Source: Octopus vulgaris
Taxonomy: Eukaryota
DNA length: 64,000 nucleotides
Direction: 5' to 3'
Assembly: GCA_951406725.2 (NCBI GenBank)
Contig: OX597819.1
Span: forward strand, 62,124,001-62,188,000
Each line of letters opens with the position of its first letter. The stretch's first letter is position 1. Under the pieces are notes generated by a model, which saw nothing but the letters and a program-made list of their open reading frames with translations, made no database searches and was not told the origin of the DNA. Below, in pieces: positions 5,809 to 45,440 of the stretch. Position numbers and translations under genes: made by a program.

Positions 5809-6470
5809 TCATCATCATTTAGCGTCTGCTTTCCATGCTAGCATGGGTTGGACGGTTCAACTGGGGTCTGTGAAGCCAGAAGGCTGCATCAGGCCCAGTC
5901 TGATCTGGCAGTGTTTCTATGGCTGGATGCCCTTCCTAACGCCAACCACTCCGTGAGTGTAGTGGGTGCTTTTTATGTGCCAGACGGAGCTGGCAAACGG
6001 CCATGAACGGATGGTGCTTTTACATGCCACCGGCACGGGGGTCAGGCGAGGCTGGCAACAGACACGAACGGATGGTGCTTTTACGTGCCACTGGCACGGG
6101 GGCCAGGCGAGGCTGGCAACGGACACAAGCGGATGGTGCTTTTACGTGCCACCGGCACGGGGGCCAGGCAAGGCTGGCAATGGACACGAACGGATGGTGC
6201 TTTTTACGTGCCACCGGCACAAGGCCAGTCGGGGCGGCGCTGGCAACGGTCACAAACGGATGGTTCTCTTACGTGCCACCGGTACTGGTAACTCAGCTGC
6301 AATTTCCATTGATCGATTTCGATTCTGATCCTCACTTGCCTCAACAGGTCTTCACAAGTAGAGTTTTGTGTCCCAAAAAGGGAAGGTATGCATACGTAGG
6401 CTGGCTCCATCCCATGTAGAAGGCCACGGGTTATGGTCTCACTTCTTTTGCCGGGTCTTCTCGCGCACAG
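5805..6470 (-). mobile_element. Retroelement 3' end (RTE-like LINE/SINE tail) with internal 61-62 bp tandem repeats
   Basis: (GAT)n tail, shared AACCCATGCTAGCATGGAAAG terminal motif, about five imperfect repeat units at 5965-6290. Confidence 0.75.
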
Positions 6471-7059: not shown

Positions 7060-7128
7060 GATTTGTATTGTGTACGGAGTGACCTGGGTAACTTGCTCAA
7101 GGCATTGGGGCGATTGGATGAGGCAAAG
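7060..7128 (+). CDS. OGT: OGT exon (69 nt; mammalian exon 4 equivalent)
   Basis: cag| [23 protein letters not shown] |gtaaaa. Confidence 0.96.
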
Positions 7129-8302
7129 GTAAAATATGTACTTCCTGTGTCATGAAAATTTTACTCCACACCTATATTTTGTGTAAATAAATCTATATAT
7201 TACATATGTGTATATAGATATGTCTGAGTGCATATATATAAACATATATATATAAATATATTTATGTATTTATATATATGTGTGTGTGTACATATATGTA
7301 TGTATGTATGTCTGAGATTGACTGTCAATCTTTTCTTTTCCTTTGTAATATACAATATTGTAGATATGGGATCAATTTATCCATTTAACTGTCTCAAAGA
7401 TGTTAAACCATCCTTTGTCAAATCTATTTAATAAGTTTTTATCTTCTGTCAGAAGACTGCAGTGTGGTCATGTTGATTTTCCCGGGATTCCCTGTTTTTC
7501 TAGATGATGAGCTGCGGCTTGAACATATCTGGACATTTTGTTTCTTTTTAAAAATTCAAACAAAAAAATGAACACATTACTTATTTTATTATTTTTTTTG
7601 TTTGAATTTTTACCTGAAATTGCTTTCGATTTCCTTATCATCCTCATTTACTTTGATCAGTTAGACCCTCCAAATAAAAGCCAAATTAAAATTGTGTTTC
7701 ATAATTGTATATTTCACATTTGAAAAATGGAAATTTCCTTTAGAATTAGTACTTATTTCTACTTTTGTATTGCTAAGCAGATATGAATCCAATCTCAACA
7801 GATATTGATGGCAGGTATTCCAACTTGATAAAAATTAGCTCAGCTCGTAGTCATGTTTTATAAATAGAAACCCAATAAAGCATTTTATCATGCAATATAT
7901 AAAACTGTTTTCTCAAACTAATTTTTTTCTAAAATATGAGAATCCACGATAGTGTGAAAAACAGTTAATTGAAATTTCTGCTTGCTCTATTTATAACAGT
8001 TGCAGTTATAAATAGAGCATAGGTAACAGCTTAGGTATCAAATGTATTTTGTTAGAGAAGGCTTTTAGATGTAAAGCAAAATATTTCTTGATAATTTGCT
8101 TGTCAGCTATTGTATAGCTAATGAATTTAGAGGGAGAGCTAAACCTAGAAAGATTTGTAGAATAAAGGTTTCAAACCACTGTGTTCTTTACAAATGGAGA
8201 GGCATCCTTATCACTACATTTGAACAGGTCTACTTTGAACCAGCACTAGACCATAATCTTTTGATTAATCATTCTTGTTAAAGAAAATTAAATCATTTTT
8301 AA

Positions 8303-8499
8303 CCCCTTTGTTACCCTGTTTTTTTGAAACACTCATGCTTTGTTTCAATTAATTTTGGAAATAATGAATACGTTATTAAAATAACTTGGTCGTTATTAAA
8401 GCTGTTGTTTGGGACATAAATTAGTATGAAATTCTGATGGAAGGTTTTAGATTATTTTAAAACAATTTGTTTTATAAAGGCAGGTTGATATCTAAAGGG
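8303..8499. mobile_element. piggyBac-type MITE, second family
   Basis: TTAA|CCCCTTTGTTACC ... GATATCTAAAGGG|TTAA. Confidence 0.65.
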
Positions 8500-11400
8500 T
8501 TAAGTTTGTATGTGTATAGTGGGGAAAGCGGAAAACTGCATGTAGCTTATGTTATAGTTGAAACATCATGTAAGTGTTTGATGTGTGTGTGTGTGTCTAT
8601 ATATACACTCGCATGCATTATTAAACTAAGTTGATAGGCTTACATTAGTTTTATTTGAAATTTAATGATGATAAATCATCTAAAAATGATCAGGCTAACT
8701 GACTGTTGGTTTTTCAATAATTAATTAGCAGGTTAATCTGTTGATTCAGTAAGGGTTTTTTTTTTCATTTGCATGCTGAAATTTATACCTTGCATATTAA
8801 TTAGATTTAATATCTTATTTAAATGGGGCAACGAACCTGCTCTCTCTAATCCATATTTGGCTTGATCTAGCATTTTGTTTATGCTGTCATGTGGGGATAT
8901 ATATTTTATATACTAGTGTTTGAAATTTTGATCTTAGCCATGTAGAGAAGTAAATAAGATATTAACTTTGTTAGTTTAGCATTGAACAGCCATTTTGTAC
9001 TTTTGCTATGTTACCTTCTACCTCTGTTGACAAGTAAGGGAAACAGAAGTTCTCGTTCAGTGGTGCATTACCACTCGCATGAAATGAACTTGTAACTTCA
9101 GCAAATGTTTTATTAATTTTATAATTGAAAACCCTTTATATTTTTCCCTTAAAGTGGAATTGTTAAAATGATCCATTGCATTGAAACATAAAGTATTTCT
9201 TTTATGATCTTGTAAAACAGAATATTCTCTTATGAAATACACCTGAATTTTTTTTTCTTTGTCATTTTCTTCCTATATTTGATTTCCCCTTTTGAAAGAT
9301 CCTTGCTTCTCCAAGAAATGTTCTGTTGATTAATTTTTTTCCAAACTTTTCTTTGAGATACAGGCTAACCTTTTCCCCTCCCTTTCTACCTAAATCTTCA
9401 CGCGTTTTGTCCTGAGGGATAGGGGAAAAATACCACAAAACAATCTAGACTTTCCCAGGAGAATCAATGACCACTCTGCAACCTTAAAATTTTGAGATTC
9501 ACAGGAAGGAAGTTCAGGCTGGTCGTGGTTCCCTCACATACTGGTTCTAAACTTAAATTCAAAATAAAATCTTTTCCAAATTTCTGAATGTTTTAAAACT
9601 TCAGCTGCAATCATATTATGTATATATTTTTGCCTGAAGTTTTTCTGATTTAAGTGACCAACTTTTGTTTGATAAAGCCTTTTGTCTTTAATTTAGAATC
9701 TTCTACCATAAAAATGTTTTTGTATCATAATTGCTTTATCAAAATAAAAAACAACAACAAAACCCCCCAAATTCCAATAAAATTTTCAAGCTTTTAGTAT
9801 CCAGTATGTATGTGCACTCTGAGCCAGCCTTAACTTCCAATCATTGCTATCATATGTTATGAAAGCTGGAACCCCTGCCAGTTAACCCCAACACCATTTA
9901 AAAGATTATACTGCAGGATGCTGAATGAAGCCAACTACTACTACTATTACTCAATGGAGTGTGAACTGTTTGCATTGCAGCACTTGCTGTTTAATATTGA
10001 GGGAGAAAGCAAGGCTTGAACTAGTCTTGTTAATACTGCCACAATGTCAGTCAGGATCCAATTGCTCCCACTGTTATTTATATTAGGACACAATTTATAA
10101 ATTTAGTTGTCACATGTCTTTAATTTAATGTCAATGCTTTCTAAAGAAAAGAGAAAAGGACTTGGCAGCGCCTCTTAAAATTCATCTAAGAAACTGCATG
10201 GGAAAAAAAAAATATATATTTATATAAGAAAAAAAGACTTGGAAATAAATATTTTCCTTAGAATTAAAAAGAAAAAATATTGCAATTGTAATGTCTAGTC
10301 TTCTGTTGTCATTACATCACATTGCTTAGTTCCTGTGATTTATATTGTTCTTGTAGTATAATGACAATTATCTGTAGAGGCATATCTACTTCTCTTTTCT
10401 GTATATGGTTCCCATAGTGCATTTTTTTACACTCTTTGTACTCTTTGCCAATTTATCTATTTTACTGTTACTACTTATTACCACTACTACTACTATTGCT
10501 ACTTTTTTAACTACAACTAGTAAATGTGCGCGCTTTTAAGTTCTTGTTATGTCGTCAATCTGTAAGCTATTTTGTGTCTAAAATGAAAAACCAAAAGTAC
10601 GAAAGTATATGGAACACATGTGCTAAACATTTTAAAACTTTTTTAAAGCTTAGAATTTTTAGAAATACACATTTTCCTTTTTTTTTTCCCTCCTTTTTTT
10701 CCGTCTGTCTCTTGAGTCGGTATATAATACAGCAATACCATCCTGGCTACATTGTGCAGTATATTTACATTGACAAAGGATTGTTTAACTGCTTTAGGGA
10801 TAGATAAGATACTTTATTGTTTTGTAAAAAAATTAAGTTCAAATCACTACAGGACAATGTTTATTGAATGTGTAAGACTTCCAGTTACAAATAATCAAAT
10901 GATGCAACATTTTGTTTATCCTTTTGAATAAATTTTTGATTTCATATTCTTTTTAAAAATTGGTCAGAACAGTGGAGATGGCTGAAGCAGCAGACTGCCA
11001 AGTTGATGCTTTGATGTAATCAGTTTGGTACCTCACTGTTCTAAGTTCAAATCCCAATTGGACTGACTTTTTTTTTGCATTCTTTGAGATGAAATTGACC
11101 CTTACAATTTATTGGTGTACTTAATTCAACAAATTTTTCCCATCCCAAAAATGTGCCTGATTCCTGAATGAATTCTGATTATGACAACTGTAGGAGGTAC
11201 CAATAATGATATTGTTAAATGTTTACTTTACTATTATATTAGTCTGCTATTTTGAAAGGTAATCATAATGAAAATTTAAATCTTAAAAATTGAATACTTA
11301 TTTAATTTATAAATTTGAAATATTTTATATCAGTAAAATATACTTTATGTATTTATATATGGAAAAAACAAATTAGTTTGAGTGGGATACAAATTTCAGT

Positions 11401-11842
11401 ATGGAGCCAGCCTACATATGCATACTTTCCCTTCTTGGGACACAAAACTCTACTTGTGAAAACCTGTTGAGGCAAGTGAGGATCAGAATCGAAATCGATC
11501 AATGGAAATTGCAGACGTGTTACCAGTGCCGGTGGCATGTGAGAGAACCTTCCGTTTCGCAACCGTTGCCAGCGCCGCCCCGACTGGCCTTGTGCTGGTG
11601 GCACGTAAAAAGCACCATCCGTTCGTGGCCGTTTGCCAGCTCTGTCTGGCACCTGTGCGGGTGGCACGTAAAAAGCACCCATACACTCACGGAGTGGTTG
11701 GCGTTAGGAAGGGCATCCAGCCGTATAAACACTGCCAGATTTGACTGGGCCTGATGAAGCCATCTGACTTCACAGACCCCAGTAGAACCGTCCAACCCAT
11801 GCTAGCATGGAAAATGGACGCTAAACGATGATGATGATGATA
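11401..11842 (+). mobile_element. Same retroelement family, opposite orientation to 5805-6470
   Basis: Near-identical reverse complement of 5805-6410 with fewer repeat units; (GAT)n tail. Confidence 0.78.
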
Positions 11843-13790
11843 GCAATCATGCAGGCACATGTCCAATTTATATAAGAATATTCCACATTCTACAGACATC
11901 TCTTTGTGGAAAAACTGTTTTGATTTTAGCTGTAAAGCAGTTTAGTTTGATTTGAGTTACAAGATGGACCTGCATATTTAGAGCTCTACTAAAATAAATT
12001 TAGTGAGTAAAATCATAGGACAAATGCCACTCTTAAGTTTTGATGATTCTTTCGGTTAACTTGTTGTTTAATGGTCTTTTAAGAATTGTTCCAATTGTCT
12101 TCATATATGTAGGATTTATATTGCACCAATGTGGGTCTGTTAAAGGTCATCATTTAATGCTTGTCATGTTATATTTCCATTTACAACCTTATTACATAAG
12201 ATGTGAATCAGCTGCTTACTTGGTGTCCGAAGCAGATGTTTTAATGCAGTTGTAGATTTGTCCTAATTTTATGTCAACTTTCCATTCTGGGATGGGTTCC
12301 ATGTCTCATGTCCAAGTCAGTGATTATTTGGAGATACTTCTCCCTCAAAGACAAGTTGAAAGACCATTTCATTTTTGGTTGCAGCTGGATGCCCTTCATT
12401 CATTGACCACTTTACCATGTCTACCAGATGTATTGTGGGACTCACACTAATCTTCATTACTCTGTAATTTGTTTGTTCACTCAAGATAACAGGTGTTGTG
12501 AAGGTAACTACAAGAGTGATGGCAAACGGTGAACCAGGCTGGGTCAGTGAAAGTTGCAGGAGTGTGATGTTAAGAGAGACGAGGTAGTAGAAGAGGAAAG
12601 TATGATGGATAGAGGTGGGCAATGACGAGTGATGGGTATCAATAGCAAATGGCTTCTGGGGAGAGAGAGTGAGTGATGATTGGTAGTGCAGAAAGGGTGT
12701 TCTGGGGTTGTATCAGGTACTGCCAGAAAAAGAGTAAATAGTCTAGTAATTTAGATGAAGCTGATGTAAACTTGGCATGGAAATATTGGTAGAGACCTGT
12801 GTATGTGTAACTAACACACACACACACACACACACACTATATATATATATATGCATACAGGTAGCTTATATCTTCTAACCACCATTGTTTTTGACATTTC
12901 ACCTTGCTTGCACAAGTGGACAGACCTTCTCTGGCACTGCAGGTTGCCAAGCATGTTAGTTCTTTGTCATCTACATGGATCTAACCATCAGTCTTCATAT
13001 TATCCCATATTGTGTTTTTCTATAGGTTCCATCCACTTTGAGTGCCCTACATTTCTTCGTACAACTTTCGTCTTAATACATTGTATATCCACACCAGCAT
13101 CTGTCATACTCTACATCTGATATTTTTAATATCTAGTTTGCCACACAACTCATTTGCACTCTGTTCATGCATAACACATCTGTCAGAGCATGCTTGCTTC
13201 AATTCTTTTTAGTCTTCCCTTTAAGTTTTCTGCTTTAAGAGCTCGCATCAGTGTGAGTACACAAGTGTCATAAAAATTTGCCTTTGACTCTGAAAAAGAT
13301 GCCCTTTGTAACTCCCACAGTCAATAGCTCCTTGAACTTTCCAACTTGTTTAGCCCTGGCTACTACACTTTTGCACTTACCTTCATTGTTAATTTGGTCA
13401 CCAAAATTACAGACTACTTCTAGAGAGCCTTCTGGGACTTTCAGAATCTGTTTCCTGAGTGCGCTGTTCCTGAAAATCTACTTGATAATATTTTATAGAA
13501 TTTGAGCATTTTGAGCAAACCTATATGAAAACAAATATCAAAGCTGCTTTTCATATCAAAAATACTGTTTTGGATAAAGTTAAAAGTTTAAAGCTCTGTC
13601 TTTGGAATTAATGTTGAGTTGCATCAATCACTTTCCAAAAAGCATACAAGAGCACTAAAACTACATGCCAGAAGTTAATTTTAAAATATTTTTTAATTGA
13701 TCAGTACAAGATTCTATAGCAACTAAATGTACAAGTCAATAAAATACATTTTATAAGTATAATCACCAAATATTTTGTGATAGCTGTTAA

Positions 13791-14864
13791 CCCTTTCGTT
13801 ACCAAGCCGCCCGAAAAAAATTTTGGTTAATGTGACCAAACTGCCCAAACCCGTCCGTATTTACCTATTCATATTTAAATGAGAATATCAGAGCAAATCT
13901 CTTTAGTACATTCGTGAAAACATGTGATTATACTTCGTAAACAGTTCATCTACAGTTTTGTACATTGATCGAAGTGTAATTTTAATTCTGTGAATTTTGG
14001 GAGATTTTTTTCCGAAATTTGTTCCTATTGTGTTTTCAAAATTTGTAATTCTGACAAAAAATGGATACAAATTTCATTATATCAAGTGGCGAGTCAGAAT
14101 TCGAAGGCTTTTCTACTGAACCTTGATAAATCTAACTCTATGACTGAAAAAAAAAGCACGAGGTATTTGATAATGAATCCGATGTTTCATTTTCCGAAAG
14201 TGAAAACAGTGAATCCGAGAGCTCCGACAGCGATAAAGAAAATGAATTGGCACCTGAATGGAGTGAAAATTTAAAAACTGTTTCTTTCGGTGATTTTTCT
14301 GAAGAAACTGGACCAAGCCACAGTCTTTCCCAGGAGAGTAAAGCCTTAGACTATTTCTATTTACTTTTTCGAATAAGCCTATTTGAAATCATTACGGCGG
14401 AAACGAACCATTACGCTAAATGTAAACAAAGCGAAAGAAAGGATAGTTTGTGGTTTCCCACAACCTTAAATGAAATTAAGGCCTATTTTGCCATAAATAT
14501 TATTATGGGTATCAGAAAGTTACCCAGAATAACAAATTCTATAGTAAAATTTTGTTGTATACCCAATTGAATATTAGCTAATAACCCATTTTCTATAGCG
14601 ATGTTTGAACAAAAATTTTAATAATTTTATATTTTGTTGAATTTACCTGTATCTACCTGCAATTAGTCACTTTGTGACAAAAATTATAGTATAGAATTGG
14701 TTGAGAACATTTCATTAAATTATCTTCCAAAAATCACATTAATATATTAATAAATAAAAAAGTTATAGTTGTTTAATGAAACCAGACTAAATTTATGATT
14801 ATGTTAGAAATTAATTGAAACACATAAGGGGTGTATTTTGGTCATAAATATAGTAACGAAAGGG
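13791..14864 (+). mobile_element. Internally deleted piggyBac (PGBD4-like) transposon
   Basis: TTAA|CCCTTTCGTTAC ... GTAACGAAAGGG|CTAA termini; residual peptide LFEIITAETNHYA...WFPTTLNEIKAYFAINIIMGIRKLP typical of piggyBac transposase N-terminal part. Confidence 0.88.
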
Positions 14865-15640
14865 CTAATAGACATTTCTTTTGTGTAATTCTTTTCCAGG
14901 GAAGGGTGCGTCACCTTTTGGTCATGAGGTATAGATTGTGATTTGGGCTGAAGTGGAAAAAAATTAGCCCAAATTTGTTAACAATTTAGTGCTGAATAAT
15001 ATTCAAAGGGCAATGGTTAGGATATAGTAGCCTCTACCTATTTTGAAATGGATTTGAACGCAATCCAAGAACTGTAATTCATTTAATTTCACTTGTCTGT
15101 ATTAATACTGACAACCTATTTGATTTCCACATGTTATAAATTGTTCATAATAGATTTTCCTTAATGGCTGGTGTGTATCTCTTGACCATGGTCCTGCCCC
15201 CACCCCGTGCTTAACAGCTATTTTGTAAACCTCAAAAATTGAATATTTTATTTTGTTCATGTAATATATAAATCCATTGACTTATTAATCTGCAATTGAT
15301 GTAATGGTTGTTTGCTCAATGCTCTAATCTGCCAATATTTCACACACACACACACACTAGTAGGATCGATTTAGTTCATAATTGAATCACTTCTGTGGAG
15401 CAATGCTTTACTAACAAAGGATTCATAAAAGGCACTCTTTTATATTTTTCCCTCATAAAAGTTGACAAATTTTATTGTCCTTAATAATTTTAAACTGGAA
15501 GTTACCCATTCAATAAAATTCCTGTGGATTGATTTTAATCATTTTTCATATTTTTAAAAACTTGACTGCTGATTATTCACTGTTGTCAACATTCTGTACC
15601 ACTGAACACTAATGATCGTCTTTTTTGATTTCTACACAAG

Positions 15641-15896
15641 CAATGCAGGTGTGCTCACTGCTATCAAATAGTGTGCCCGCCTGGTCAGTCAGTCACTCGT
15701 GTCTCCTGGGTCAGTCACTAGCTGTGGGTCGGTCAGCGGTTGGTCATCTTCTACCTACTCCCGGCCCAGCCTGGCCAGGGCAGGCTGCTGCAGCAGCACC
15801 AGGACCAAAGGACAGACTCCTCCTAGTTGACTACTACTACAGAGCTATGAATGAATACATTGGTATTAGTAGACATCTCTGAGGTGTGAGCTGAAG
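15641..15896 (+). promoter_or_regulatory. Candidate decoy/poison exon in the large OGT intron
   Basis: Branch-like CACTAAT (15607), pyrimidine tract, AG at 15640 and 15648, GC-rich body, clustered GTnnGT hexamers, in-frame stop, donor-like sites at 15884-15914. Confidence 0.55.
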
Positions 15897-17240
15897 GTAT
15901 TGTATACTTAAATGTGAGTCAATTTCAGTTGTAGTCCCTGGCTATTTGTCTCCTATTTCTGCAGTGTAATGACATCTCTTTTACTGATTCATGATGGTCA
16001 AGTGTGATTTGGGGCAGTTTGGATTGCAAATTTCACCACCTAATGACATATATATATTTTCCTTTGGTTATAGTTTTTGCTGCTGGCTTTGAAACTGTTT
16101 TCCTCTTCATTGTTATAAAGGACACAGCTTAATTTGACTCCACATTCAAAATTGTTGATGGAAGTAATATTTGTTTTAATTTCAGTTATCTTAGATGATG
16201 AGAAAGCATTTAGTTCATATAACAGTTGAAATTTCTCTTGACTAATAATAGAATATTCTTATCACTGAATTAAAAAGAAATACTAATTTAAGAACCGACA
16301 GGATTAACTAATTTTAGCGTACCCTCTCCTTTAACTTTTACAAAATGCTGGTCTATAAAAATACACTCTTTAGATGTTGTAGGCTAATAAAACAAATGTC
16401 TATATAATTTAGTAAATCGATCTTTCTTATTGCTTCTTAAAGTGTCTTTAGTCAAAACCATTCACTTGATTTAATTATGTGCAGTTCACTTCTTGGAATT
16501 GATTTTGAATGCTGAAAGCACCCTTGGTATAAGAACTTCATTTGGCAAAACATGCTGCAAGGGCAATAACCTGTTCGCACCATGGTTGTTAAGGTTTTTT
16601 TTAATTCAGTTTTCTTTGGCACACTGCAGTTTATTTGCTGACTCTTAGTTCTCTTGTATTTAGCCCCTTTTTAGTAATAAATATTGAAGTCTGTTGTTAC
16701 CTTTGTAAATGTTTTCCAAATTTTTTTTTAAATAGATATTTGTATTTGATTTTGATTTGTTTAAATTGTGTAACTTATATGGAATTTGAAATTCTAATTG
16801 ATATAGTTGTGAACTATTTGATTAAACATAGCTTTTTTGGTAAGTACAGCTAACTGAGAATATTCATTAAATCTAGTTAATTTAGCATGTTTTGTTTTGA
16901 AGTCATTTTTGATTTCGTATCTGTTCTTGAAAGATGGGGACAAAAAACGTACTTCTGTGTTTTAACCATTTAACACCTCAAGTGGTGTTAGTAGAATATA
17001 TTGAAGGGTTTTTTGTTTTAATTTTTTTTTGTTGAAAGAATTATTACAATTTACAAATTTGCCCTGGTAAGAATCATTGTGGCAAGACTTCATTTTTCAA
17101 AATCAGTTTAGTTAAATGAGTATTTTATTTTTGTTTCAACTTACTCTATATTTAGTATACTTTTTCTTTATACAGTGTAATAGTTCTAGTTCTTCACACA
17201 ATCAATTTTTTGAATAATATGCTGTATGTGTGTGTATATA

Positions 17241-17296
<56 letters not shown>

Positions 17297-19803
17297 TTTT
17301 CTAGTTTCTGAAGTAGGTGTAAGAAGTAATTATAGAAGGAGCTGACTGAAGAAAATCATTGTTCAAGAATACTCTGTCTAGTGTTAGGACTGAATCTTGC
17401 TCAGAAAATCTGCATCTTATATGCCATCATCACTCCTTTAGTTATGGTAATTTTAGTAATGAAATATATTTGAAGTATTTGTATTTTATATCAACTTAAT
17501 ATGTATGCAAGAGACTATAGGATGCTGCATGGTAAAATTGTTTTGGAGAAGTTATACATTGTCACATGACTCATTGGGTATCATTGAATGTTTTACACTT
17601 GGTCTGTCAATGAAGATTCACTGCTGTTGTTTCCTATTGGATTCCTAGAAGCCTACAATTGCACAATATTCTGCCTCTTCAGTGTGTAGTAGTAAACCAT
17701 GAAGAGTTACAGATCTATACCAGTGACAGGATGTCAAACAAGATACATTGAAATCAAAATTGGAACAGTATAATTTATTTTATTCAATATAAGTTTTTAA
17801 AAAAAATGCAGTTTCATATAAGATACATTTGGAATGCTGCTTAGTTTCAAATTATTTTAAATTACCTGAAATATAATTTTGATGATGATGATGATCACTT
17901 ATATAGTATGAAGATGCTTTCCCGAGCTTGTATAAGTATTTTGCTCAAAAGTTACGACAAGGAAATTAGTTAAAAGTTACTACATGTATGAACCAGTATT
18001 TTTGCATTTTTATGGAATGGAATTTCTTCAAAATGTAATCAGTGTGTTCACATATTAAAAATTTTCCATCAAAAATTAGTTAATAAGGGATGACAGAAAT
18101 AGCATATTTTCTTTTACGCATTATTTACAGTAGAGGATTCCTGTTTCATGTTTTTTTTATTGTATGAGGAATTTGTCCAGGAATATGTATTAAAGTTTTT
18201 TTTTTTTTATATTTAAGTAAAAGGGTGAGAATTTATGTCTGCTTTCTACTGAGATTATTAGTGATAGAATATTTCTTGTTGGTTTCCTTGAATGGTGATT
18301 TTGTTTTCTTTTCCTCTCTCTCTCTTTCTATCCTACTGTCCCATGTAACAGCTTTACCTCTTTATGCCATTATACTGCAGTTGAAAGGATATTGATATGC
18401 CCTAAAATACAAGAAAAATAGAAAACAAAAACACCAGCATCAAATAACTTAATTTGTATTATTAAAAGTGACTACTATAATACTGATTTTTTAAGGTTCT
18501 TTTCATATTTTTTCATACAAGCTTTTTTTTATAAAGTCATTTTTCATAACATCACTAATTTCTCCAAAATTATTGCTAATTTTTCAGAATAATTGTTTTT
18601 CTATCTTTTTTCATTTTTCTTCTATTAGATTTTTTTTTACATTTTTATTTCGTTTCTTTACAATTTTTTTCTTTGTCTATTTCATTTTTATATTTCTATA
18701 TCAGTATTTTTGTGTGTATGTATTTTATGCAGTTACTTTTTTATTCCCTTAGCGCGCGAAGCATTGCGCGGACGCACTTGATCGCAGGCGAATAGATAAT
18801 TTTTTTTAGATGTCAGATTTCTTCTCCTGTATTTTAAAGTTTCCTCATCTTGTCATGGATGACTTGGATGTCTTCAATTTATCCAAAATTTCTTGACTGA
18901 TAAATTCTAAAAGTACATTTTCATTCACTTTGGGCTATATAAATAACACCTTATTTTAAGTGTTTTATTTTGCAAAATTTGTAATAATCAGTGAAGGGAG
19001 TGTCAGTTTTTCATTGTTAATGAAAAAATAAAAAGAAAACAAGCAAAAGTTTTCATTCGAATAATAACTAGAGTTAGAGAAATACTTCAAAACGTCATGT
19101 GTGTGTGGCTACCCATGATGAGGCAGCTTGTTGGGAGAAGAGAAGTGAAACCTAATTATTTTATTTCACCAAGCAGAACGGCTTTCTTCTCCTATTATTA
19201 CAAGAGAAGAGAAATGACATCTTTATTTTTTTAAAAAATTTTTTTATATACATATATATTTAATTCCATATATGTATGTATATAAAATGCGTGAATGTGT
19301 GTATGCATATATATGTGTGTATATATGCATATATATATATATATATATATATAATTTTTGTTTTACTTTGGTGTTATCAGCACAAGTCATCACTAATGTA
19401 TGGTTTATAGAACCAAAGTTTCTTTTAGCAGCTAACTTTTCAAATATATAAATAACTTAAATTTTAGATTTATTAAAATGTATTCACCAATATTTAATTT
19501 TGCTTTTTTTCCCCCTAAAATAATTTCATTTTTTTCTTTTGCTAAATCTCTAGATGATGCATTTATACAGATGTTAATTTGTTAGGTTGCCTAAGAAAAC
19601 ATGGTTCTAAAATCCTATATGCATGGTTAGTGCTTAACACAGTATTATTGCGCGCGTTTAGTTCATAGTGCAAAACTTCTACTGGAGCGCAGGCGACTTG
19701 AGCGCTTTGCTTTTGGATGTTCTTTTTAACTTTCTTTGTCTTTTGCCAACCTGTACAAACATCATTTATTTTGTTTATAACTGTAAATTTGCCTACACTT
19801 TAG

Positions 19804-19992
<189 letters not shown>

Positions 19993-40279: not shown

Positions 40280-41204
40280 GTAGGTGTCACACACTTTCTC
40301 TCATTCAAATTAATTCTGTGTGGCAGTAAACTTACAATCATGAGTCAGTTCCAGCTTTTTGCTTAAGCTAATGCTATAATACCTTTTGTGAAAGGTTTGA
40401 GCATCATAAATTTTCAATGTTTTCCTCTAACTCTTGGATTCTTATCCTGCAGATTAGTCACTTAACTCGAACACTTTATTCTTAATCATGCAGTCTGTTA
40501 ATGTTTTTTTTTTTTTTTTTAATTTTTTTTTTTTGGAGACACTTTATGGAGGAATTACTCATATAAGGACTTCTGATTGTTTGTGGTACTTACATATTCT
40601 GACATAGTGACATGTGAAGTCAGTTCAGGGATTTGAATAGGTAATGTAGTACACATATCCTCGTTTATCACTGATTCAGTCATCACTGATCCGGGATAAG
40701 ATACGCTAATTGTGAACTGCATTACAGTTTTCTCAGATTGATTATGTGACAACGTAGGTCAGTGATCAAAGTTTCAGCTTGGACTGTAAAAGCATACCTC
40801 GGTGACCATCCACAATGCTCTGGTCAACTTAGGTCTTACCAATTCATTCAGCGTGGTGATTTTTGGCAACTAAGCGCCTATGATAAATGAGGATAGGTGT
40901 ACTTTGCCTGAAGGCTGCTAAGTATTTTAGCCAAATGCGACAATATGTCAGCCATGTTATCAACTTACAGATAATGTCTCTTTGTTATGTATTAAGCTTT
41001 GGTACTACCATCTTCAATCAGTAGTCCTGTGAAAGTAATTTTTCTCTCCAAATACTATAGTAACAAAATTTTGTTGTCATTGACAATAGCAATTCTTGTA
41101 GATCGTATGTTGCTTCTTTGTTTTTTAAATATCAAATTCCCCTACCTATATTAAATAGAAATATTGTCTTTAAACAGCCTTAGATGAATAAATTGTTATT
41201 TCAG

Positions 41205-41648: not shown

Positions 41649-42208
41649 ACCATAAAGGGGGGCGAGCATGGCCGTCCGCCAGCCTCGTCTAGCACCTGTG
41701 TCGGTGACACATAAGAAAACACCATCCGAGCGTGGCCGTCTGCCAGCCTCGTCTGGCACCTGTGTCGGTGGCACATAAAAAACACCATCCGAGCGTGGCC
41801 GTCTGCCAGCCTCGTCTGGCACCTGTGTCGGTGGCACATAAAAAACACCATCCGAGCGTGGCCGTCTGCCAGCCTCGTCTGGCACCTGTGTCGGTGGCAC
41901 ATAAAAAACACCATCCGAGCGTGGCCGTCTGCCAGCCTCGTCTGGCACCTGTGTCGGTGGCACATAAAAAACACCATCCGAGCGTGGCCGTCTGCCAGCC
42001 TCGTCTGGCACCTGTGTCGGTGGCACATAAAATCACCCACTACACTCTTGGAGTGGTTGGCGTTAGGAAGGGCATCCAGCTGTAGAAACACTGCCACATC
42101 TGACTGGCCTGGTGCAGCCTTCGGGCTTCCCAGACCCCAGTTGAACCGTCCAACCCATGCTAGCATGGAAAGCGGACGTTAAACGATGATGATGATGATG
42201 ATGATGAT
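41649..42208 (+). mobile_element. Same retroelement superfamily with homogeneous 63-bp minisatellite
   Basis: About 5.8 copies of a 63-bp unit (41664-42031) followed by the shared tail and (GAT)n. Confidence 0.8.
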
Positions 42209-44287: not shown

Positions 44288-45440
44288 TTGGGTCATCCAT
44301 AAATAATGCAGTTTTTTTCACTTGCATGGACTAAAAGTTGGATGGGGACAGGATAAACTACTTGCATCAACTTGCTATAAAAGCAGTTAGTAATGTTATT
44401 TTCTCTAAGCTATAATGGAAGTAATAAAAGAGCATATTTTGCTTTATGAGTTCAATAAAGACAATCAGGCAATGGAAAGTGCAAGAAATATTCATGCAAT
44501 ATATGAGGATTGGACAATAAGTGTAAGCCAGTGTCAACTGTGGTTTCAGAAATTCCAAGCTGGAAACTACGCCTAGAAGATGAAGTTGATGAGGACGTGT
44601 TGCAAACCCTGGTGGAACAAAATCCCATCGTAACTGAACTAGCAGAAAAGCTTGGATTTTGGTCATTCAACCATTCATCGACACTCAGAAGAGCCAGCAA
44701 ATTGGGTCAATGGGTTCCTTACAAACTTTCTGAATCTAATTGTGTGCAGAGAGCAAATGTGTGCTCTCCTTTGCTGTCACATCTCACGAATGAAGCTTTT
44801 TGGACTGAATAGTGATTGGTGACAAGAAATGGGCTCTTTAAAAATGTTGAACGCTGAAGACATTGGGTTGTGAAACGAGAAACACCAGCACTCCAGGCTA
44901 AAGAAGGTCTTCACCCATGTAAAGTATTATCTGTTTGAGATATGAAAGGTTTAGTCCACTTTGAAATTTTAAACCCAAACCAAATGATAACAAAGGAGAT
45001 CTACTGCGAGCAGCTTGAGCGGCCTTAAGTCAGCTCTAGAAGAAAAACGACCATCTTTGGTTTCAAGACAAAACGTGTTCATCCATCAGGGTAATGCTCA
45101 GCCACATTCAGCGATGATGACATTCCAAAGGGCAGTTTGAATGGGAGACGCTGCCCCACCCAGCATATTCGCTGCTCCATCTGATTATCATTTATACTGC
45201 AGTCTTCAAAATCATTCGGACGGAAAAAATATGAATTCTGTAGACGAGGTCAGCTGTACTGGAGAAGTGTTTTTTGTCATGGACTAGTGTATTTTGGAAG
45301 AGAGGCCTTGCAAGTCTACCAGATAGATGGTAGAAATGAAGGAGAGTATATTTTAGATTAAAAAAGGACTTTATCTAAATTTTGTAAAAAAAAAAAAGGT
45401 TTTAAAAAAAAAAAATCCACATTATCTATGGATGACCCAA
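44288..45440 (+). mobile_element. Degenerate mariner transposon with both TIRs
   Basis: TA|TTGGGTCATCCATAAATAATG ... CATTATCTATGGATGACCCAA|TA; relic motifs WVPYKL, IVIGDKKW, HQGNAQPH, APSDYHL with stops/frameshifts. Confidence 0.92.

Follow-up and report, generated by a model that had tools for sequence, protein, structure and literature searches.

A predicted cephalopod poison exon within OGT intron 4, and evidence for unproductive splicing at the same junction in other invertebrates

We consider it fairly probable that intron 4 of the octopus OGT gene is an unproductive-splicing switch that lowers the output of OGT, probably under O-GlcNAc feedback as in mammals. What is new in this study is a defined cephalopod poison exon, together with mollusc and cnidarian cases of a known switch; a literature search, with subscription papers mostly outside its range, returned no description of such an OGT switch in molluscs or cnidarians. 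As far as the available text of the reports goes, the retention of human intron 4 tracks the O-GlcNAc level and depends on a silencer of 526 nt whose conservation extends to jawless fish (PMC5588854), and the same junction is O-GlcNAc-responsive in both human and mouse cells (PMC5588854, PMC7261177). A decoy exon of 143-153 nt with alternative donors and acceptors overlaps the silencer, the splice sites of this exon being required (PMC6097662, PMC7373989, PMC12017769); in human this decoy exon carries a stop, and its inclusion goes up under OGA inhibition (PMC7261177).

In protein comparison, the OGT sequence named as Octopus (P0003) was 100% identical to an exon of the window (the whole stretch of 64,000 nt analysed in this study), and mapping of P0003 onto the window gave 21 OGT exons. 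After addition of exon 1, located 20,256 nt upstream of the window, the reading frame covers 1,035 aa, with its sole stop at the end. The features at the junction of interest are as follows, all positions being those of the window.

7060 to 7128, + strand: OGT exon 4, 69 nt, D141-K163, the same in length and position as human exon 4.
7129 to 19803, + strand: OGT intron 4, 12,675 nt.
19804 to 19920, + strand: OGT exon 5, A164-K202.

Intron 4 is of the GT..AG type and lies in phase 0 between K163 and A164. Human OGT exon 4 is 69 bp in length and encodes residues 155-177 (PMC5535036, available text). Since exon 4 is of 69 nt in both species and the octopus downstream exon, beginning with ACYLKAIE, aligns from human OGT residue 178, the octopus intron 4 junction is exactly the human exon 4/5 junction (K177/A178 in human numbering), in good agreement with the preliminary description, which had placed this intron at the site of mammalian OGT intron 4. 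The same description gave its length as about three times that of any other OGT intron in the window, and by measurement the ratio is 2.8 (the next longest is 4,512 nt); its designation as the largest OGT intron does not hold for the whole gene, because intron 1, the upstream part of which lies outside the window, reaches 21,404 nt. Within the gene, the intron 4 donor (7.6 bits) is tied for the weakest among 21 donors and the acceptor (7.0 bits) is the fourth weakest among 21 acceptors, as scored with matrices made from those same sites. As to other isoforms, octopus OGT proteins come in lengths of 1,028/1,035 and 1,031/1,038 aa; the 7-residue difference may be due to an alternative acceptor at 41184-41204, by which MNKLLFQ would be added.

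Inside intron 4 we identified the parts of a cryptic exon.

15608 to 15640, + strand: 3' splice-site region of the cryptic exon, with a predicted branch point (ACTAATG), a pyrimidine tract, a weak AAG acceptor, a 137-nt AG-free zone and a second possible acceptor 8 nt downstream.
15641 to 15913, + strand: predicted cryptic poison (decoy) exon, 273 nt in its longest predicted form, in a single-copy island of 57% GC; the 3' end is inferred.
15684 to 15737, + strand: cluster of donor-like sites with GT at 15684, 15688, 15710 and 15732; cuttlefish gene model P0006 implies use of the first of these as donor.
15719 to 15721, + strand: premature stop TAG in the reading frame continued from exon 4, giving a predicted TPR-only product of 189 aa.
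15897 to 15919, + strand: second conserved piece of 17 nt, between an AG and the GTGAGT donor at 15914; it corresponds to the last part of the 20-aa insert in cuttlefish.

The cuttlefish gene model P0006 contains a 20-aa insert exactly at the K|A junction, and the octopus intron encodes all 20 residues in two pieces, 15641-15683 (43 nt) and 15897-15913 (17 nt), each with splice dinucleotides; the 3' limit of the 273-nt exon is taken from this gene model. A search with the octopus cryptic-exon region also yielded P0187, a 189-aa product of Logan contigs (two contigs, the longest being 3,871 nt). Residues 1-163 of P0187 are identical to cuttlefish OGT (163/163), octopus agreeing at 153/163 over the same stretch, and its last 26 residues are identical (26/26) to the translation of octopus 15641-15718, after which TAG comes next in octopus. 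Because phase-0 read-through of a GT donor must give Val as the first residue and the P0187 tail starts with Gln, this tail points to a splice and not to read-through, and P0187 is, as judged from its translation, a squid or cuttlefish product of splicing between exon 4 and the cryptic acceptor. An OGT downstream fragment of 852 aa is present on contigs of the same number and length as those of P0187, and would fit inclusion of the exon in a full transcript.

The cryptic element is the highest-GC island of the intron outside the repeats, and the surrounding segment 15050-16400 is single-copy in the genome. The ACTAATG preceding the exon is one of just two in the gene's span within the window, and 7 of the 37 donor-like sites of the intron (at least 5 bits, among 720 GT) fall inside 15641-15920, the top count for any interval of 280 nt. 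The presence of multiple weak competing splice sites on the decoy is predicted by matrices from the 21 sites of OGT, and P0006 and P0187 imply some of them. Among the proteins retrieved, P0006 and P0187 alone carried the cryptic-exon peptide, the insert being absent from all 11 proteins of the Octopus cluster; its use in octopus is nevertheless considered very probable. The 79-aa frame at 15643-15879 showed no protein relatives (0/4 candidates, and a further search gave one match without an aligned stretch), and the RNA structure of the exon was unremarkable (z 0.13).

For detection of the same junction in other animals, metagenome assemblies were scanned with OGT residues 141-229, a query centred on the K|A junction, and the best 80 of 559 loci were kept. 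Contigs were classified as cDNA-like when the whole contig was below 6.1 kb and carried at least 450 unbroken codons after A164; L010, L069 and L046 were left out as genomic, and L011 and L015 were judged individually. Among the best 80 of 559 loci 33 contigs were cDNA-like, of which 19 carry non-coding sequence at the K|A junction, and this count is to be read with the notice that the library type of the contigs is not stated, that some could be DNA from intron-poor species, and that assemblies favour long retained forms. Seven of the 33 retain the whole GT-AG intron (1,027-2,641 nt); five contain a cassette of 74-230 nt that causes a frameshift and an early stop; in one, exon 4 is joined to a cryptic acceptor and the remaining 756 nt of the intron are kept; six retain the terminal 103-1,501 nt of the intron; splicing at K|A is seen in 11; and three begin 25 nt or less from the acceptor. 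Inserts elsewhere were found in 0 of the 11 spliced contigs, those reaching the upstream exons being unbroken there, while downstream inserts are barred by the cDNA-like definition itself. The loci L006 and L045 make up a 100% identical spliced and retained pair, starting within 3 nt of each other and differing by an intron of 1,741 nt. Among the cDNA-like contigs with non-coding sequence at the junction, L027 is from a gastropod (90% to Elysia OGT, grouping with Elysia at SH-aLRT 100 in a quick tree) and L039 is from a hydrozoan-like cnidarian (86-88% to hydrozoan OGT); most of the remaining cDNA-like contigs group with arthropods.

In the oyster cluster, P0145 (14 contigs) and P0148 (6 contigs) carry stop cassettes, with tails of 22-23 aa that start with a residue other than Val after the same Lys. 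A wider census of short-protein tails at the junction (120 of 324) gave 79 with Val first, 26 with another residue, 8 spliced, 5 unparsed and 2 ending there; since this census was selected for truncation and mixes DNA and RNA, only P0187 and the oyster cases were used. In genomic loci holding both ends, the intron at K|A is 2.0-9.0 kb in length. The assembled sequences thus support unproductive splicing at the K|A junction in other invertebrates. As a separate observation, the cassette or the intron end gives an in-frame start just before exon 5 in L024, L027 and L039 and in P0022, P0094 and P0140, which predicts OGT forms with a truncated N-terminus in many animals; we presume that such forms resemble the human mitochondrial OGT isoform. 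The genomic contigs L010 (93 kb) and L069 (41 kb) carry OGT without the K|A intron and nearly all others, and represent, by their gene structure, a putative intron-poor lineage or retrocopy in which the switch is lost.

The 3' end of the octopus intron contains the following features.

18753 to 18790, + strand: CpG-rich block behind the intron's third-best acceptor-like site, with a 9-mer in common with the distal motif; its role is putative.
19648 to 19710, + strand: GCGCGCG / CGCAGGCGA motif, which precedes the terminal acceptor by 95-155 nt; other animals show CGCG enrichment at this position.
19703 to 19803, + strand: 99-nt AG-exclusion zone and terminal acceptor, the zone being the second longest among the gene's 21 acceptors.

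The 99-nt AG-exclusion zone suggests a distant branch point at the terminal acceptor. For a set of 37 intron 4s (octopus included, after removal of 5 cassettes and 17 near-duplicates), CGCG was found in the last 260 nt of 27, compared with 89 of 279 windows from the intron interior (p 2e-6); among other introns, it was found at 5 of 21 ends in those loci and in 0 of 19 from octopus. Such p-values are optimistic because there is relatedness among the species, three of the 24 acceptors serving as locus controls are probably false, and the motif window and thresholds were set after seeing the data. In the same set, an internal ACTAATG followed by a pyrimidine tract was present on the sense strand of 9/37 introns and on the antisense strand of 0/37. 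The AG-free zone has a median of 99 nt for intron 4 (n=41) as against 28.5 nt for control acceptors (n=44), and AAG acceptors are used by 16/41 intron 4s as against 7/44 controls. Two copies of the 9-mer CGCAGGCGA lie in the octopus intron, one in each of the features at 18753-18790 and 19648-19710, and it is also present near the intron 4 3' end in L046 and L079 (five sense and no antisense matches, one locus being a duplicate). A 10-mer, AAGGTATTGT, found in 3 of 83 loci, was discarded, as it had been chosen from two of those loci and was not significant on the remaining one. The RNA fold of the intron 4 3' end showed nothing unusual (z 1.12).

Two dispersed repeats are carried by the intron as passengers.

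11401 to 11841, + strand: dispersed repeat of 441 nt, 93-97% identical to many genomic copies, which we take to be SINE-like.
13787 to 14868, + strand: dispersed 1.08-kb DNA transposon derivative, presumably piggyBac-like, with a DDE_Tnp_1_7 fragment at 14148-14567.

Together they account for at least about 1.5 kb of intron 4, scoring having been limited to the best candidates and the search to all but about 1.3 kb of its length. The element at 13787-14868 is non-autonomous with inverted ends, and the genome contains at least 39 further copies with 93-97% identity to it. Copies of a GC-rich dispersed repeat with an internal tandem unit of 61-63 nt, located at 5989-6282, 11401-11841 and 41663-42032 (introns 3, 4 and 19), explain most of the CpG-dense spots in OGT. 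The last OGT intron contains, at 44409-45284, a broken Mos1/mariner-type transposase with HTH_48 at 44409-44573 and two pieces without Pfam match. The preliminary description of the intron as loaded with cryptic elements was overstated: one internal element, at 15608-15919, stands with cross-species support, as do the 3'-terminal CGCG motif and the AG-free zone, and the other sites are candidates only.

At the level of nucleotide sequence, octopus intron 4 gave no blastn match to 62 other intron-4 sequences, and the scores of five of its sub-elements did not exceed those of shuffled sequences. A by-eye match of the gastropod cassette to 9955-10065 was rejected (score 28, with 174 of 200 shuffles as good), six other cassettes had no significant match in the octopus intron, and the 19-base human decoy donor motif, the only human motif compared, had 0 matches at 3 mismatches. 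Rfam gave 24 matches on the intron, none at gathering score and all on or overlapping simple repeats. Conservation of blocks across species, on which the preliminary description had made its proposal depend, is thus found for the cryptic exon between octopus and cuttlefish as judged in translation (26/26 and 20/20), with no octopus match to other phyla. The segment 15000-20000 was present in 20 of 24 sequencing runs, none of the runs containing it being on record as RNA, and this is not counted as evidence of retention; in 14 of the 24 runs (4 studies, guessed to be RNA, 77-199 million contig letters) 0.71-0.95 of its words were found, and in 4 runs 0.04.

The conserved pieces could instead be coding micro-exons that add 20 Cys-rich residues to the TPR region of a functional cephalopod OGT isoform. 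The 43 plus 17 nt are indeed in frame, conserved at 20/20 and included in the cuttlefish gene model, and a donor after 15709 also gives an in-frame exon of 69 nt without stop. Against this, the transcript-type P0187 continues past the first donor to the stop, the 11 residues past the first modelled exon piece are conserved equally well between octopus and P0187, P0006 is based on a single genomic contig, and 5 of 7 donor choices tested lead to an outright stop or frameshift or require a second exon for the frame; in human, loss of exon 4 alone destabilises the TPR domain (PMC5535036, available text). We regard this coding role as quite unlikely. Simple slow splicing, due to the weak donor, the distant branch point and the length, with the cryptic and retained forms as noise or independent lineage-specific accidents, would agree with the lack of sequence homology between phyla, with the commonness of long introns in OGT (21.4 kb for intron 1) and with the bias of assemblies to long retained forms, but it fails on the intronic identity of 26/26 and 20/20 where the flanking coding sequence is at 153/163, and on the absence of inserts elsewhere from all 11 spliced cDNA-like contigs, and is held to be very improbable.

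It is a closer question whether a regulated unproductive-splicing switch exists there but is set by tissue, development, temperature or stress instead of the O-GlcNAc level. All the sequence evidence concerns unproductive splicing and not its trigger, and the retention of a fly sxc intron, which the available passages do not name, is shifted by a drug unrelated to O-GlcNAc (PMC11765297). On the other hand, the responsiveness of the same junction to O-GlcNAc in human and mouse cells, noted above, and the maintenance of one unusual intron at one position across animals, most simply explained by a shared feedback role, make such a different trigger rather unlikely.

The similarity to vertebrate OGT intron 4, as available from the published text (PMC5588854, PMC6097662, PMC7261177, PMC7373989, PMC12017769), includes the junction, the phase and the 69-nt upstream exon, an internal exon that carries a premature stop and offers several donors and alternative weak acceptors, strong conservation within the intron (here octopus-cuttlefish, in translation), and the occurrence of spliced, retained and exon-included forms, here from other invertebrates. 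The octopus intron differs in length (12.7 kb versus 3.3 kb), in its predicted exon, which may be as long as 273 nt and has its donors distributed across 230 nt (versus a decoy of 143-153 nt), and in its lack of sequence likeness to the single human motif compared. Conservation of the intron 4 element is placed at vertebrates and jawless fish by the papers (PMC5588854). The large intron with a conserved multi-site cassette and stop also resembles the decoy-exon retained introns of SF3B1, ARGLU1, DDX39B and SNRNP70 (PMC6097662, PMC7373989) and the SR-protein poison exons, although that class, in the text available, is based on reporter and antisense experiments in human cells and the octopus exon on its sequence. 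Drosophila sxc/Ogt, likewise an invertebrate OGT with control at the level of splicing, is under post-transcriptional control via a long intron (cited in PMC5588854, PMC11623933; retention in PMC11765297); unlike in octopus, this intron is not tied to the K|A junction in the available passages, which describe no decoy exon, and Drosophila is described as lacking an ISS-like element (Park 2017, PMC5588854).

As a model for the unproductive-splicing switch in octopus, the consensus branch point, the weak acceptor at 15640 and the several competing weak donors would draw the spliceosome, and the sites of the internal exon would compete with the intron's own weak donor and its acceptor with the distant branch point. 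Skipping of the cryptic exon would give full-length OGT, a stalled transcript would retain intron 4, and inclusion of the exon would lead to a stop at codon 190 and predicted NMD. The predicted octopus anatomy matches the decoy model, and retention of intron 4 in octopus is likely. That O-GlcNAc is the signal is, on balance, our preferred assumption, inferred from the orthology and from flies, in which OGT protein goes up when its activity drops (PMC11623933, available text). Of the ancient or convergent origin that had been suggested for the switch, an ancient one is favoured by the distribution of the cases over molluscs, arthropods and a cnidarian, and common ancestry of the octopus and vertebrate switches appears likely. 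The suggestion is supported as to the position, the conserved stop-containing exon and the unproductive splicing in other invertebrates. As a tentative scheme, which we rate as quite possible, the feedback may come from the cnidarian-bilaterian ancestor and be conserved as architecture and not as sequence, i.e., an internal ACTAATG, weak acceptor and donor cluster combined with a terminal acceptor with distant branch point and CGCG element, and cephalopods may run it with their own ultraconserved poison exon at 15641-15913.

This finding bears on how the splicing machinery reads the O-GlcNAc level at OGT intron 4. Sequence turnover between phyla leaves a short list of candidate cis-elements, namely the features still held in common: an internal branch point, a cluster of donors, a long AG-free zone and CGCG. 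In vertebrates these are hidden by ultraconservation, and the octopus exon supplies exact sites for blocking or reporter transfer. A counterpart in molluscs, arthropods and a cnidarian, if true, would push the switch back to early animals.
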